Below are positions 53,648 to 57,453 of a DNA stretch of 64,000 nucleotides, one piece after another. The stretch covers positions 1 through 64,000 of the forward strand of contig JAXCHI010000002.1 in the NCBI GenBank assembly GCA_033977065.1. Reading direction: 5' to 3'. The stretch comes from Candidatus Algichlamydia australiensis. GTDB taxonomy: Bacteria > Chlamydiota > Chlamydiia > Chlamydiales > JAJFMI01. Position 1 is the stretch's first letter, and each line of letters starts with the position of its first letter. Both the position numbers and the translations under genes were made by a program. The notes under the pieces were generated by a model. The model made no database searches and was not told the DNA's origin. It saw nothing but the letters and a program-made list of their open reading frames with translations.

Positions 53648-54337
53648 ATGCTTGCAAAGCGATTTTTTCTCTGTGCCCTGTTGATTCTCTCTGCCTCGTG
53701 TGCGAATGCACGTCGTACCAACTCAAATCCCAAAGTAAAAAGTTCTGTTTCAAAGGCAGCTCCGAGACCCCCAATTTCAAAAAAACCAGCTCCGCTCATT
53801 ATAATTGATGCGGGTCATGGTGGTTTTGATAATGGCGCGAGTTGCGGAGGACTCCTGGAAAAAATCTCTGCCCTTCGGACAGCAAAACTTGTGCAGACTC
53901 ATCTGATAAAAAAAGGGTATCGTGTCAAGATGACGCGAACGAAAGATGAATTTATTCCCTTAGCAAAGCGAGCGCAAATTGCCAATCAAGCTAAGGCGCG
54001 TCTCTTTGTCAGCATCCACTACAACGCAGCAAAAAGTGCTGAAGCCAAAGGGATCGAAGTTTACTATTACAACTCCAAAGAGCCGTGGCGTCTCAACGGT
54101 TCAAAAAAGCTAGCTACCTGTGTTTTGCACCGCCTCATAGCCCGCACGGGCGCTCGCTCGCGCGGCGTGAAAACGGGCAATTTCCATGTGATACGCGAAA
54201 CGGACATGCCATCGATCCTTGTCGAAGGCGGATTTGTCACCAACAAAAACGAGAGATCGCTCCTCAAAGAATACCGCTATCTTGACCGTATTGCTCTATC
54301 CGTCGCGGAAGGCGTAGATCGTTACTTCAAAAGCTAA
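53648..54337 (+). CDS. amiA: N-acetylmuramoyl-L-alanine amidase (Amidase_3)
   Basis: Signal/lipoprotein-like N-terminus, IDAGHGG, EK, SIHYNA and LVEGGF. Confidence 0.93.
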   Translation: MLAKRFFLCALLILSASCANARRTNSNPKVKSSVSKAAPRPPISKKPAPLIIIDAGHGGFDNGASCGGLLEKISALRTAKLVQTHLIKKGYRVKMTRTKDEFIPLAKRAQIANQAKARLFVSIHYNAAKSAEAKGIEVYYYNSKEPWRLNGSKKLATCVLHRLIARTGARSRGVKTGNFHVIRETDMPSILVEGGFVTNKNERSLLKEYRYLDRIALSVAEGVDRYFKS

Positions 54338-54346
54338 TAGAAATTG

Positions 54347-54492
54347 CAGTCGGGGCTAAAGCCCCTGCTGCCCCTTCGGCTTCATCTTGCTGTGCCAAAT
54401 AAAATTTCTGCTATTGCGCCGTACGCAGTACTGTCACAACAGCAGAAATTTCATTTTGCTTTGCGATATGAACCCGCGGTTCCGCTTCGCGC
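54347..54492. repeat. Intergenic imperfect palindromic element, family A, copy 2
   Basis: CAGTCGGGGCTAAAGCCCCTGCTGCCCCTTCGGCTTCATCTTG resembles 3413 onward. Contains the stem AAATTTCTGCT..GTAC-GCA-GTAC..AGCAGAAATTT. Confidence 0.7.
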
Positions 54493-54536
54493 TTTAATCG
54501 TTAGTTTTGTTAGAATGCTCATGCGAGGAGTGATCT

Positions 54537-54779
54537 ATGAGAAAAATTTTATTGATTTTGCCAGTCGTGAGTGCGCTTTGTGTTGCAGAAGCAAAAGTAA
54601 TCTCACATAAAGAACAACTTGCTTTTGAAGCTCCTTGCACAGTTATCTGTCCTGCAAATGTTCCGCATGAATTTTTTAATACAGGAGATGTGCCAACAGA
54701 TGCCATTGCCATCTTAGGAATTGACTCGAAGATCATCGATCAAAACGAAATTGTGATGGAGCTCCCTTGGCGCCATTAA
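54537..54779 (+). CDS. Small exported hypothetical protein
   Basis: GAGGAG RBS and signal peptide MRKILLILPVVSALCVAEA. Confidence 0.6.
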   Translation: MRKILLILPVVSALCVAEAKVISHKEQLAFEAPCTVICPANVPHEFFNTGDVPTDAIAILGIDSKIIDQNEIVMELPWRH

Positions 54780-56128
54780 GTTTTTGGTTGTTTTAATCTA
54801 TATCGTACCGATCTTGTTTTACCGACTTTTTCTAAAACTCCGTTATCAATCATCTCTTCAATTCTTCTTAAGGTAGTCGCGCGTGAGATTTTCAATCGTT
54901 TTTGGATGTCTTTTGATGTGACTTCTGCTGAAGAGGAGAGTAAATCAAGGACTTTTTCTTCATCAGTTTGGGGTGGCGTTTTCATTTCTTCCCGAGGAAG
55001 AATACATTTTACATAATTTTTCCCTTCTATTAATTGCGGTGTAGCAAGACCTCTTTCTTCGTAGCTATCAAGAATCTCAATGATGCCACTTCCTAATTTT
55101 TCAACGTAACCAACTTCGCGAAAAATTTTGCAAATCGCTGGATTGCGGAGGTAGGTGATTCCTGCGCGCAGATTATCCAGATCGATCGGACCCGGAAATT
55201 GCCCAGGACTGAAAACCTCGATGCGATTATCATATATGGCAATTTTGATTGGTGCTTTTATCATGTAATTTCGATGGGCAATAGCATTGAGAAAAGCCTC
55301 TCGCAACGCAATCTGCGGGATTTCAAGTGTGTCTTTTCGAATGGGACCTTCAAAAGAATATGATTTTGCTAATCGAGAAGTAACAAATTCTAAGGCTTGG
55401 TGATATTGATCAAAAAGTGTTCCTTCGCAATCAATCGTTGCAATGATTTCGCGACCTGAGTTTCCAGAAAAATGACTACAGATAATCATTGCTTCGGATA
55501 GAAAAAATTGTGGTTTTTTTCCAAACAATAAAATTCCAGTAACAGTAGGAAATTTTTGTGTATGTTCACTGGCTACTAAGTGGTAAGAGCGCCAAGTTTC
55601 TTCGTTAATATGGGGATTTCCGTGATTTTTTCTTGCTTTTAGGAATTGAAGGAATTTCTCATCACTTAAGTCCTGAAGTTTGGCACTAAAAATTGGTCTT
55701 CGGTCATAATCAATCCCTCTTGATTGAAAGTGGAGTTCTTCGATCATTTCTTCATTAGCACGAGTAGTAATTCTACCTACTCGAATATAGGTTCCTTTAG
55801 TAGGACCTTCTGAACGTCGAAAATAGGGTTTTTGTGAACCAGAGCTTACTTCAATAATGACAATTATTAGTTCGTCAAATCTTTGGCAAAAAATATTAGG
55901 AATGATTGGGGGCTCAATACTTGCAAAAACTGCTTGGTTTAGGGATTCAAGAAGTTCACTAGCCCTCTCCTCTGGTACACCAACAACAGTTCCATTATCT
56001 TCGACTCCAAGTACAAGTTTTCCTCCATGTCCATTGCAAAAAGCAGTAATAGTTTTGATGATCTGATCGTACTTTGGGATTTCTCTCTTAAATTCTAAAT
56101 TAACTGACTCACTATCAGAGTACTTCAT
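54776..56128 (-). CDS. Schlafen/AlbA_2 + HATPase_c_4 + wHTH protein, copy 2
   Basis: ESVNLEFK, ITAFCNGHGGKLVLGVED, REAFLNAIAHRNY, RNPAI, VEKLGSG and a C-terminal HTH. Confidence 0.88.
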   Translation of the reverse strand: MKYSDSESVNLEFKREIPKYDQIIKTITAFCNGHGGKLVLGVEDNGTVVGVPEERASELLESLNQAVFASIEPPIIPNIFCQRFDELIIVIIEVSSGSQKPYFRRSEGPTKGTYIRVGRITTRANEEMIEELHFQSRGIDYDRRPIFSAKLQDLSDEKFLQFLKARKNHGNPHINEETWRSYHLVASEHTQKFPTVTGILLFGKKPQFFLSEAMIICSHFSGNSGREIIATIDCEGTLFDQYHQALEFVTSRLAKSYSFEGPIRKDTLEIPQIALREAFLNAIAHRNYMIKAPIKIAIYDNRIEVFSPGQFPGPIDLDNLRAGITYLRNPAICKIFREVGYVEKLGSGIIEILDSYEERGLATPQLIEGKNYVKCILPREEMKTPPQTDEEKVLDLLSSSAEVTSKDIQKRLKISRATTLRRIEEMIDNGVLEKVGKTRSVRYRLKQPKT

Positions 56129-56131
56129 TTT

Positions 56132-56297
56132 GGTTGCCTCATTTGGCTTGGATTTTAACTCAAATTGTATTTATGAATCAAATGAAGAGATTTAACACAT
56201 CAATAATCTCCTCATTCGTCTCATTTTCTCCTCAAAAATGTATATTTTGAGTCAAATGAGGAGATTTAACTTAGCTGCAATCTCCTTATTTGACTCA
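56132..56297. repeat. Array of alternating 19-bp inverted repeats with a ~74-bp period
   Basis: Consensus TGAGTCAAATGAGGAGATT. Forward copies at 56174 and 56248, reverse copies at 56205 and 56279, and a degenerate copy at 56132. Each pair has a 12-bp spacer. Confidence 0.85.
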
Positions 56298-56402
56298 ATA
56301 TTTTGTAAAATAAAAACATAACATTCTAATGATGAATGAGGTATGGTTTAAACACTAAGAAAACAACAAATATTTTTACTTATAAAAAATGAGGAGAAAA
56401 GC

Positions 56403-56469
56403 TGTCTTCGGCGCGATTCGAACGCGCGACCTGTCGCTTAGGAGGCGACTACTCTATCCAGCTGAGCTA
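56403..56469 (-). repeat. 67-nt duplicate of tRNA-Arg lacking the 5' acceptor strand (attR-like)
   Basis: 66/67 identical to 57145-57211 (offset 742 bp). Confidence 0.95.
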
Positions 56470-56804
56470 AGAGTCTCAATGACTTCTTCAAGGTCTATTT
56501 GAAATGTAGGAAGGCTTTCTCGAATTGTTTTCCAAACAATTTCGTGATCTACATCAAAATAGGCATGAATAAGCCGATTTCTCATGCCTACAAGCGCTTT
56601 CCAAGGAATATGAGGAAATTTTTTCTTGGTTTTATCTGAAATTTGACCCGCAGCTTCACCAATAATTTCAAGCTCTCGTAGTACAGCAGATTGGTAGAGA
56701 CGGTTGTTCCTAAGTGAAGCTTTTCGTTTGCCTTTCGAAAAATCGAGAATGGCGTTTGTGGAATCGAGCATATGCATCAGTCGGAGCAAATCTTTATTTT
56801 CCAT
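56454..56804 (-). CDS. HEPN/DUF86 (HepT-like) RNase toxin
   Basis: LEIIGEAA, IPW...GMRNRLIHAY (RX4H plus the adjacent Tyr) and IVW. Confidence 0.93.
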   Translation of the reverse strand: MENKDLLRLMHMLDSTNAILDFSKGKRKASLRNNRLYQSAVLRELEIIGEAAGQISDKTKKKFPHIPWKALVGMRNRLIHAYFDVDHEIVWKTIRESLPTFQIDLEEVIETLSSAG

Positions 56805-57096
56805 AGATAGTCTTTGCAGTTGCTAATACATCGTCACGAAAATAGGGGCTCAAGTCGTTTGGAGTTCTAAGATCAACCGGATATCCGAAGATCTCGCTCA
56901 GCTCCGATTCCATTTCTACAATCCCAAAGAGATTAGGGATATGTGCTTTTTCAAATTTCACTAAGACATCAACATCACTTTTTTTCGTAAAATATGGGGT
57001 GATAACTGATCCAAATAGAGCAAGATAAGCAATATGATGTTTTTTGCAAAAATTGGAAATTTTTCTTTTTTCTATTTTTACAGGGGTTTTACTCAT
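56794..57096 (-). CDS. Minimal nucleotidyltransferase (MntA-like) antitoxin
   Basis: LFGSVITPYFTKKSDVD (GSX10DXD) and VDL. Overlaps the HEPN start. Confidence 0.93.
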   Translation of the reverse strand: MSKTPVKIEKRKISNFCKKHHIAYLALFGSVITPYFTKKSDVDVLVKFEKAHIPNLFGIVEMESELSEIFGYPVDLRTPNDLSPYFRDDVLATAKTIYGK

Positions 57097-57144
57097 TTGA
57101 CTACCTCCTTTCCCTCATATTGTATCATTTTTTCAAAATAATGT

Positions 57145-57218
57145 TGTCTTCGGCGCGATTCGAACGCGCGACCTGTCGCTTAGGAGGCGACTGCTCTATC
57201 CAGCTGAGCTACGAAGAC
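57145..57218 (-). tRNA. tRNA-Arg(CCT)
   Basis: GTCTTCG-TA-GCTCAGCTGGATAGAGC-A-GTCGC-CTCCTAA-GCGAC-AGGTC-GCGCG-TTCGAAT-CGCGC-CGAAGAC-A. CCA is not encoded. Confidence 0.97.
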
Positions 57219-57271
57219 ATTGCGACAAGTATACCTGTGTAATGACTTTTGTGGTATAAAAAGGAGTTTAA

Positions 57272-57430
57272 ACTCAAGTTGCTACCTCCTTCCCCCTCTG
57301 GAGAGGCCCTTTTTGCGATCTGTTTAGTTTAAAATTTCAGAAATGTTTAACAAACATTCCTTCAATTTGAAACAAAACATCTCATCAAAAATCCCTCTCT
57401 CCATAGGAGAAACTGGGTAGCAACTTGAGT
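57272..57430. repeat. ~160-bp rod-like imperfect palindrome upstream of gnd
   Basis: 15-bp perfect ends ACTCAAGTTGCTACC/GGTAGCAACTTGAGT, with pairing continuing to an AAC loop at 57349-57351. AGGAGTTT is repeated at 57262 and 57442. Confidence 0.85.
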
Positions 57431-57453
57431 GTTCAAATATTAGGAGTTTTGTG

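Follow-up and report, generated by a model that had tools for sequence, protein, structure and literature searches.

Within a 64,000-nucleotide stretch of the Candidatus Algichlamydia australiensis genome (positions 1-64000 of contig 2, hereafter the window; the genome comprises 1.8 Mb in 7 contigs and is 93.4% complete), a MNT-HEPN toxin-antitoxin pair lies between a tRNA-Arg(CCT) gene and a partial copy of that same gene. The genes of the window include ftsI, murE, amiA and a nucleotide transporter-like open reading frame (ORF), a set that looks chlamydial. An earlier note on this DNA had described a cluster in the order tRNA-Arg, MNT, HEPN, tRNA copy, repeats and Schlafen gene, all on the minus strand, and our annotation places every part where the note had put it:

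57145-57218, minus: intact tRNA-Arg(CCT) gene (Rfam, 67.6 bits; placed at 57143-57219 by ARAGORN)
56470-57142, minus: inserted cassette of 673 bp, consisting of a leader, MNT and HEPN minus its own last codons and stop, bracketed by a 67-nt repeat
56794-57096, minus: MNT, 100 aa (Pfam Polbeta, 5e-15; NTP_transf_2, 3.1e-12)
56454-56804, minus: HEPN, 116 aa (Pfam HepT-like, 1.4e-27), overlapping MNT by 11 nt
56403-56469, minus: copy of tRNA-Arg, tRNA positions 8-74, from the D arm to the discriminator base (Rfam tRNA, 40.8 bits, model positions 8-63)
56129-56402, minus: AT-rich spacer of 274 nt (27.7% GC) upstream of the Schlafen gene, with two palindromes
54776-56128, minus: gene of 450 aa with Schlafen/AlbA_2, HATPase_c_4 and winged helix-turn-helix (HTH) domains (Pfam)

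The tRNA-Arg gene is the only one with a CCT anticodon among the 4 tRNA-Arg genes and 36 tRNAs of the genome.

The MNT-HEPN cassette and its junction with the tRNA copy

The MNT protein carries the motif GSX10DXD, which reads GS-VITPYFTKKS-DVD in translation, while the HEPN protein carries RX4HXY (RNRLIHAY), whose R, H and Y are invariant in an alignment of three sequences. These two motifs are characteristic of HepT/MntA pairs, whose MntA polyadenylylates the tyrosine of the toxin motif (PMC7641770; here and below, a paper cited by its PMC number stands for the extract of it that was available). The MNT also matches the PADLOC model PDC-S09 at 1.9e-22. As in the known HepT/MntA pairs, a PF01909-type MNT gene lies upstream of and overlaps a PF01934 HEPN gene on the same strand, the signature motifs are present and both proteins are small. 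Unlike those pairs, the one in the window has a HEPN that ends in a tRNA-derived SSAG, and its NCBIfam scores (46.8 bits for MntA, 47.5 bits for HepT) both fall below the 60-bit cut-off, which makes it a relative outside the curated equivalogs. From these features we infer a working type VII module serving addiction or abortive infection, in which the MNT would AMPylate the tyrosine of RX4HXY in the HEPN RNase.

The leader between the tRNA and MNT measures 46 nt and carries an AGGAGG ribosome-binding site. GC makes up 36.6% of the cassette and 37.7% of the Schlafen gene, compared with 42.1% of the genome and 41-48% of the core neighbours. Given that the cassette stands at the 11th percentile of all 673-nt genome windows, its composition is only a weak sign of foreign origin.

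The copy (56403-56469) and the gene (57145-57211) are identical at 66 of 67 bases, at an offset of 742 and with the single mismatch at 56451. When tRNA-Arg is compared with the genome by BLAST, the copy is matched at an E value of 2e-30; thus, the likeness is not a matter of chance. The copy lacks a 5′ acceptor strand, and the direct repeat stops at the last base of the tRNA, the discriminator position. As the earlier note had pointed out, the HEPN frame ends inside the copy (...ACT CTT AGC TCA GCT GGA TAG), with the final five codons and the stop being copy-derived and the C-terminus SSAG being encoded by tRNA-derived DNA. Two HEPN homologues in the three-sequence alignment end at the same alignment position on their own stops (after ...EEIISELS and ...EDVIASFDEK, respectively), and the nucleotide homology between the cassette and its best relative begins about 32 nt ahead of MNT and breaks off exactly where the copy starts. 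Hence, the tRNA-derived codons replace about three native codons and a stop. The junction of HEPN and copy looks illegitimate, not designed.

The earlier note was likewise correct that the only change in the copy keeps the D stem paired (G10-C25 to G-U). Nevertheless, 131 of the 201 possible single substitutions (65%) would spare the cloverleaf pairs of the copy, so one pair-compatible change says nothing on selection. The copy holds the acceptor- and anticodon-stem bases of its own genome at positions where the tRNA of the sister species differs, which fits a recent event and a donor from the same lineage alike. An origin of the copy from cDNA was rejected, given that no CCA follows the discriminator base. 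A terminator scan found none at the copy.

A contig of 246 nt from a second study covers 56247-56492 without any difference; hence, the junction of HEPN, copy and spacer is not an assembly quirk of one data set. The three sequencing runs that contain the stretch are all DNA. Assembled contigs end at the repeat, whose identical block of 48 nt is longer than the presumed assembler word length of 31, in which case an empty or excised form of the site would not show up as a joint. The depths in run X2 (452 for the contig on the left side of the copy, 65 for the one with the cassette) are whole-contig means from a sample that also contains related organisms and high-copy repeats, and were not used as evidence.

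One other partial tRNA copy exists in the genome: an exact 48-nt copy of positions 24-71 of tRNA-Ser(TGA) at C2:358695-358742, which precedes the gene itself (358889-358975) by about 150 nt of gene-free DNA.

The interval between amiA and tRNA-Arg in relatives

Three further features bound or fill the locus:

53648-54337, plus: amiA, encoding N-acetylmuramoyl-L-alanine amidase (Pfam Amidase_3, 5.9e-52), ancestrally next to the tRNA-Arg 3′ end and now the far boundary of the hotspot
54338-54775, no strand: filler between amiA and the Schlafen gene, comprising a repeat that resembles a miniature inverted-repeat transposable element (MITE) and a cupin-like ORF fragment, neither present in the sister species
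57267-57433, no strand: MITE-like palindromic repeat (an inverted repeat) between tRNA-Arg and gnd

The DNA downstream of tRNA-Arg(CCT) was compared with that of 16 relatives from other families. In 14 of them, ftsI-murE-amiA converges on tRNA-Arg, followed by gnd, and amiA stops about 0-77 nt short of the tRNA 3′ end; no second copy of tRNA-Arg occurs in any of these 14. The remaining two are a genome without an AmiA match and one whose locus extends over only 508 nt. In the window, the distance from amiA to tRNA-Arg is 2805 nt. Since the two genes nearly abut in the relatives, the whole of 54338-57142 is inserted DNA. A Schlafen gene between amiA and tRNA-Arg was not found in the 14 relatives of other families, and MNT-HEPN at tRNA-Arg was found neither in the 16 relatives nor in the sister species.

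The sister species (G001), the only other species of the genus, is represented by a genome that is 76% complete. Its contig C5 carries ftsI-murE-amiA followed by an orthologue of the Schlafen gene that overlaps amiA by 11 nt, and the contig stops inside this orthologue. Contig C82 carries lepA-ORF-gnd-tRNA-Arg, then a TetR regulator and a hemerythrin-like gene (L005:2463-3634), at which point the contig ends. The tRNA-Arg gene is single, with neither MNT-HEPN nor a tRNA copy beside it, and no match to HepT was obtained anywhere in this 76% complete genome. Homologues of the TetR and hemerythrin-like genes, with 57-66% protein identity, are present in the window's genome on another contig (C3:571274-572403). 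The 3′ flank of tRNA-Arg is a hotspot that holds differing cargo in the two species.

Its orthologue directly beside amiA in the sister species marks the Schlafen gene as an older, genus-wide insert. The MNT-HEPN pair and the tRNA copy are specific to this genome and thus form a newer layer, although the nearest empty site available for comparison is that of a different species, not of a strain. The newest insert adjoins the intact tRNA, as is expected if successive inserts target the intact gene. Together, the empty sites in 14 of the 16 relatives and the layering of the inserts bear out what the earlier note had kept as its fallback, namely a plain insertion hotspot.

The MITE-like repeat at 57267-57433 is about 165 bp long and has more than 15 full or partial copies in the genome (the best at 84-97% identity), with copies in the sister species too. 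It represents a third insertion at the locus and is absent from between tRNA and gnd in a relative from run X2. A second family of MITE-like palindromes is found at 54349-54497; it has 40-nt arms and several genome copies, the best being 87% identical (C3:365411-365557). The ORF at 54537-54779 (plus strand, 80 aa) gives a sub-threshold match to Cupin_2 and no NCBIfam match, and is probably a gene fragment. Nothing corresponds to it in the sister species, in which the Schlafen gene and amiA overlap.

Direct repeats around related cassettes

Species-representative genomes were scanned with the alignment of the three HEPN proteins, which yielded 80 loci; MNT adjoins HEPN in 76 of them. The best relatives of the cassette are titled Rhabdochlamydiaceae or Chlamydiae, and none is closer than 75% nucleotide identity among genome contigs or 70% protein identity among metagenome contigs. 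A locus was scored as bracketed if an exact direct repeat of at least 21 nt occurred within 600 nt on both sides of MNT-HEPN. Such repeats are present in 14 of the 64 loci with enough flank to be testable, as opposed to none of the 62 pseudo-cassettes that were set into the flanking DNA of these loci. At random positions in the window's genome, which is rich in MITEs, they turn up in 17 of 2972 cases. A second, more distant set from metagenome contigs gives 2 of 37 loci versus 0 of 15 controls. These statistics count exact matches in loci derived from metagenome-assembled genomes (MAGs). Nevertheless, an assembly artefact is unlikely, given that some of the repeats contain mismatches and that complete long-read chromosomes are among the loci.

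When mismatches are tolerated, the repeats measure 21-208 nt with 85-100% identity and differ in sequence from locus to locus. Their usual distance is 30-225 nt from MNT on the upstream side and 3-110 nt from HEPN on the downstream side, and the bracketed units are mostly 733-918 bp long. Since loci L020 and L021 share one site, and L068 and L069 another, we count about 12 independent events in addition to the window. The repeated sequence is the 3′ end of a ComM-like gene in L042, of a Trp/Tyr permease gene in L036 and of an RDD gene in L045, and the 5′ end of a HisA/F-like gene in L068 and L069 (Methanoperedens). It is the 3′ 45-47 nt of tRNA-Asn, from the anticodon loop to the 3′ end, in L020 and L021; in L023, a 26-nt repeat lies at tRNA-Phe; and in L046, a 284-nt copy of the 3′ part of tmRNA, 99% identical, bounds an islet of 2.9 kb. 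No conserved cassette ends were seen at the inner edges of the repeats, and the homology between cassettes stops at or near the coding region. Furthermore, no integrase, resolvase or transposase domain was found among 38 ORFs flanking the repeat-bracketed loci. As the bracket recurs around the cassette family, the copy of tRNA-Arg exemplifies a footprint that is general.

Several of these sites can be compared with their empty state. At the site of L036, three relatives have 30-50 nt between the two flanking genes, and at least 28 nt of the repeat lie within the right-hand gene. At the site of L042, the relative G038 holds the gene end once and lacks a cassette. The same genome has a 91%-identical cassette at a different locus (L128:1385-1807), whereas the flanking core gene is only 78% identical; the flanks of this second cassette share only a 10-nt match, which is expected by chance. 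For L069 and L045, the non-coding flanks could not be aligned, the match being confined to the duplicated end of the gene.

Individual loci of the family show further arrangements. The L128 cassette of G038 has lost about 270 nt of HEPN while MNT is intact, and is an antitoxin-only remnant. In a Rhabdochlamydiaceae MAG (L020:750-3213), three islets of about 1.15 kb, none with an integrase, stand behind tRNA-Asn. A 45-47-nt copy of the 3′ half of the tRNA bounds each of them, and between them they carry HEPN-MNT, a GT17 glycosyltransferase, and a RelE-like toxin together with its HTH partner. In a Parachlamydiales MAG (L046:1738-5043), the islet behind tmRNA holds MNT-HEPN, an alpha/beta hydrolase, a GNAT acetyltransferase and an ORF with a BTB domain, but no integrase. 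In an Armatimonadota MAG (L074:605-1708), MNT-HEPN lies between tRNA-Ile(GAT) and tRNA-Ala(TGC) with a 48-nt repeat (44/48), a tRNA pair that presumably recalls the spacer of an rRNA operon.

Entry of the cassette, rival explanations and the Schlafen gene

We conclude that the cluster very probably arose from independent insertions that accumulated at the 3′ flank of tRNA-Arg(CCT) and is no functional unit, with the tRNA-like copy being a target duplication. As the comparisons show, amiA and tRNA-Arg ancestrally converged with almost no spacer, and the Schlafen/ATPase/HTH gene entered first, in this genus. The 673-bp MNT-HEPN cassette then landed in the tRNA gene, leaving tRNA positions 8-74 on both sides; the proximal repeat completes the sole tRNA-Arg(CCT) gene, and the distal leftover closes the HEPN frame by happenstance. 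As to mechanism, and provided that this order of events is right, we lean slightly towards the cassette itself as the incoming unit, joined by a Campbell-type, end-independent process that duplicates the target. One crossover in a short target homology on the incoming DNA would suffice, made by host recombination or by an integrase acting in trans. The insert is exactly the gene pair, which supports the cassette as the unit, and it offers no room for integrase arm sites, since at least 32 nt of the 46-nt leader are homologous among cassettes and the HEPN coding sequence abuts the copy. The only recombinases in the genome are XerC-like (338.7 bits) and XerD-like (324.4 bits) tyrosine recombinases; no serine recombinase or resolvase was found in this 93.4% complete genome. 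More tentatively, and at somewhat less than an even chance, the HepT/MntA cassette family as a whole may be a self-contained mobile unit of about 0.7-0.9 kb, found in bacteria and archaea, that has no recombinase of its own, duplicates 21-284 nt of its target and, in chlamydiae, favours the 3′ parts of tRNA and tmRNA genes, whose near-identity across species would provide portable homology for RecA-driven Campbell insertion and excision.

The same duplication could also be the scar of a larger island. Islands that target tRNA or tmRNA genes and are flanked by attachment (att) direct repeats are well known, as are their integrase-less derivatives, the cis-mobilizable elements, and their tandem accretion. 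In such a scenario, a tyrosine integrase (the island's own and since lost, or one in trans) would have integrated the island into tRNA-Arg, and later deletions would have left the toxin-antitoxin pair, which trimming would spare because loss of the antitoxin is lethal. Like these islands, the locus presents an intact RNA gene, foreign DNA and a partial 3′ copy, with a repeat that runs to the exact 3′ end of the RNA gene, and its newest insert lies beside the intact gene with older DNA further out. Of the 40 closest loci, 7 adjoin tRNA or tmRNA genes, which speaks for an island as well, as do the tRNA-Asn repeats of L020 and L021 (45-47 nt), which bound several islets of about 1.15 kb with unrelated cargo. 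Furthermore, Furuta et al. 2010 set tRNA-linked repeats apart as probable site-specific recombination, taking a tRNA target as a sign of it when an integrase is present (PMC2853133). None was found here: neither the insert, nor the genome beyond its XerC/D-like proteins, nor any scanned repeat-bracketed locus holds an integrase. Unlike an island, the insert in the window is a mere 673 bp and shows no remnants of other island genes, and its leader and abutting HEPN leave no space for arm sites. Its repeat (67 nt, from position 8) is longer than the tRNA-Asn block from the anticodon loop to the end in relatives (45-47 nt). Trimming would require two separate deletions, each with its end point precisely at an edge of the gene pair, and more than 10 other loci hold cassette-sized units (733-918 bp) between duplications that are not of tRNA. 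We therefore regard descent from a trimmed island as rather unlikely. Far less probable still is a prior local tandem duplication of the tRNA-Arg region, with the cassette inserted later between the copies by chance. It is true that 'chance insertions between repeated sequences' form one class of repeat-flanked genes in Furuta et al. 2010 (PMC2853133), and that the tRNA-Ser copy described above is a partial duplicate with no genes inside. However, tRNA-Arg is duplicated in 0 of the 16 relatives and not in the sister species, the insert exactly fills the space between the copies, and the same bracket surrounds the cassette family at many unrelated sites.

The earlier note had put a functional role first, in which the tRNA-like 3′ end of the HEPN mRNA could serve the HEPN RNase and the Schlafen nuclease, singly or together, as a decoy, a site of processing or a sensor for feedback. 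In the context of the mRNA, the three arms of the copy (D, anticodon and T) are indeed predicted to form, and the junction of HEPN, copy and spacer is the same in the contig from the second study. Moreover, some HepT toxins are implicated in tRNA digestion (PMC11586414), and one bacterial Schlafen, RorSlfn5, cuts the anticodon arm of tRNA upon phage infection (PMC13056530), with the motif Ex4ExK being present in the Schlafen protein here. On the other hand, the predicted fold is no stabler than that of shuffled sequence (z = -0.22), the pairs of the copy would survive most single changes (65%), and the 5′ acceptor strand is missing. The Schlafen gene is older than the cassette and occurs without it. 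HEPN homologues stop on their own codons, other cassettes duplicate arbitrary targets, and a sense tRNA-like Rfam match follows HEPN in 0 of the 40 closest loci. Six of these 40 lie beside a tRNA gene, and one more just downstream of tmRNA; since HEPN and tRNA are convergent at all six, read-through there would give antisense tRNA. With 0 of 40 loci carrying a sense element and one substitution available, neither conservation nor covariation of a tRNA mimic in orthologous modules was found. A decoy or sensor for two tRNases is thus not borne out, and we assign it a very small probability.

The two gene families also occur independently of each other, which the earlier note had named as evidence against its own proposal and which holds with respect to adjacency: the Schlafen gene is present in G001 (76% complete) without a HepT match, and in a survey of 31 genomes of the order, where HepT occurs in 7 and AlbA_2 in 18, the six other genomes with both never have them within 10 kb on one contig. 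The nearest approach is 12 kb, in G018 (C1:338406-351313), where the HepT and Schlafen/AlbA_2 genes possibly lie in a defence island. It follows for similar loci that a tRNA fragment beside RNase genes need not be a decoy, and that insertion footprints should be ruled out first.

Several points nevertheless weigh against our interpretation of stacked, independent insertions. The contigs of G001 break inside the Schlafen gene and after the hemerythrin-like gene, so the full arrangement in the sister species is unseen. The source of the cassette and its original HEPN end are undocumented, as no relative exceeds 75% nucleotide or 70% protein identity. A single mismatch between copy and gene gives no power to separate neutral decay from constraint, and secondary use of the copy as a 3′ untranslated region, processing site or terminator may be conceived. 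AlbA_2 is present in 7 of 7 genomes with HepT versus 11 of 24 without; this co-occurrence could reflect a link, or merely genomes rich in accessory genes, and the related genomes are not independent. Finally, the last base of the repeat coincides here with the 3′ end of the tRNA, and at tRNA-Asn and tmRNA in other genomes it falls within 1-2 nt of where the RNA gene ends. Such ends are the classical att signature of integrases and are unlike random staggered cuts. The share of closest loci flanked by tRNA or tmRNA genes (7/40) is far above the share of these genes in a genome, which points to targeted integration. An idea that would bridge the two views is that the incoming DNA carries a piece of a conserved RNA gene and recombines with the resident one, in which case the limit of the conserved gene would also set the limit of identity between the two copies.

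Insertion with long target duplication was reportedly first described by Nobusato et al. in 2000 (Gene 259:99), for restriction-modification genes. The process has since been defined for restriction-modification units (Furuta, Abe and Kobayashi 2010, PMC2853133; Mruk and Kobayashi 2014, PMC3874152) by a flanking direct repeat of >30 bp that duplicates the target and an insert of <20 kb without integrase, transposase or mobile element (PMC2853133). The window has a 67-nt repeat with one copy within the tRNA gene, a 673-bp insert that holds MNT and HEPN only, and an unduplicated target in relatives. In common with the described cases, there is a small addiction-type unit without a mobility gene, the repeats are long and vary from locus to locus, empty sites exist, and the repeat often overlaps the end of a neighbouring gene (PMC2853133, PMC3874152). 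The window differs in its cargo, a type VII toxin-antitoxin pair, and in its target, a tRNA gene. In full-text searches that took in few subscription journals, no such insertion was described for toxin-antitoxin pairs or for HEPN-MNT, and a full-text search of the large comparative papers on these families did not find the term 'direct repeats'.

A widespread toxin-antitoxin cassette is thus found repeatedly between long target duplications with no recombinase nearby. If the cassette family is indeed a self-contained mobile unit, insertion with long target duplication would extend from restriction-modification genes to toxin-antitoxin pairs, which would suggest a shared entry route for addiction modules. 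The mechanism of such insertions has been open since they were described for restriction-modification genes, and a small, abundant cassette with empty sites makes a good system for its study. At the same time, a layered hotspot for defence-type genes between amiA and tRNA-Arg is documented in an environmental chlamydia.

The Schlafen protein matches PF04326 (SLFN_AlbA_2) at 9.2e-22, with Ex4ExK present as ESVNLEFK at residues 7-14, and has a GHKL-type ATPase domain (HATPase_c_4) and a C-terminal winged HTH. It shares with prokaryotic Schlafen nucleases the N-terminal Schlafen/AlbA_2 domain with Ex4(E/D)xK, the histidine-kinase-like ATPase and the HTH; this composition accounts for 19.2% of prokaryotic Schlafens and is the second commonest (PMC13056530). 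It is unlike RorSlfn5, which has another sensor domain (PMC13056530). PADLOC returned only domain-level matches to Argonaute-associated models for this protein. Plausibly, it is a separate candidate phage-defence tRNase. The window's genome holds four AlbA_2 genes.

What the earlier note had called a repeat array upstream of this gene consists of two units of about 74 nt (56171-56236 and 56245-56310) that are 73% alike. Each unit holds an imperfect palindrome of 48 bp with 18-nt arms and a 12-nt spacer, the arms lying at about 56178-56223 and about 56248-56301. The motif of the arms (with up to 2 mismatches) occurs 4 times in the spacer between the copy and the Schlafen gene and is nowhere else clustered in the genome, and the sequence of this spacer is unique in the genome. 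No palindrome arms were found upstream of the three other AlbA_2 genes. A promoter-like site lies at 56181-56152, and its -35 hexamer, 30-50 nt before the Schlafen gene, is overlapped by the proximal palindrome. The palindromes are putative operators for the winged HTH of the Schlafen protein, which would probably regulate its own gene.

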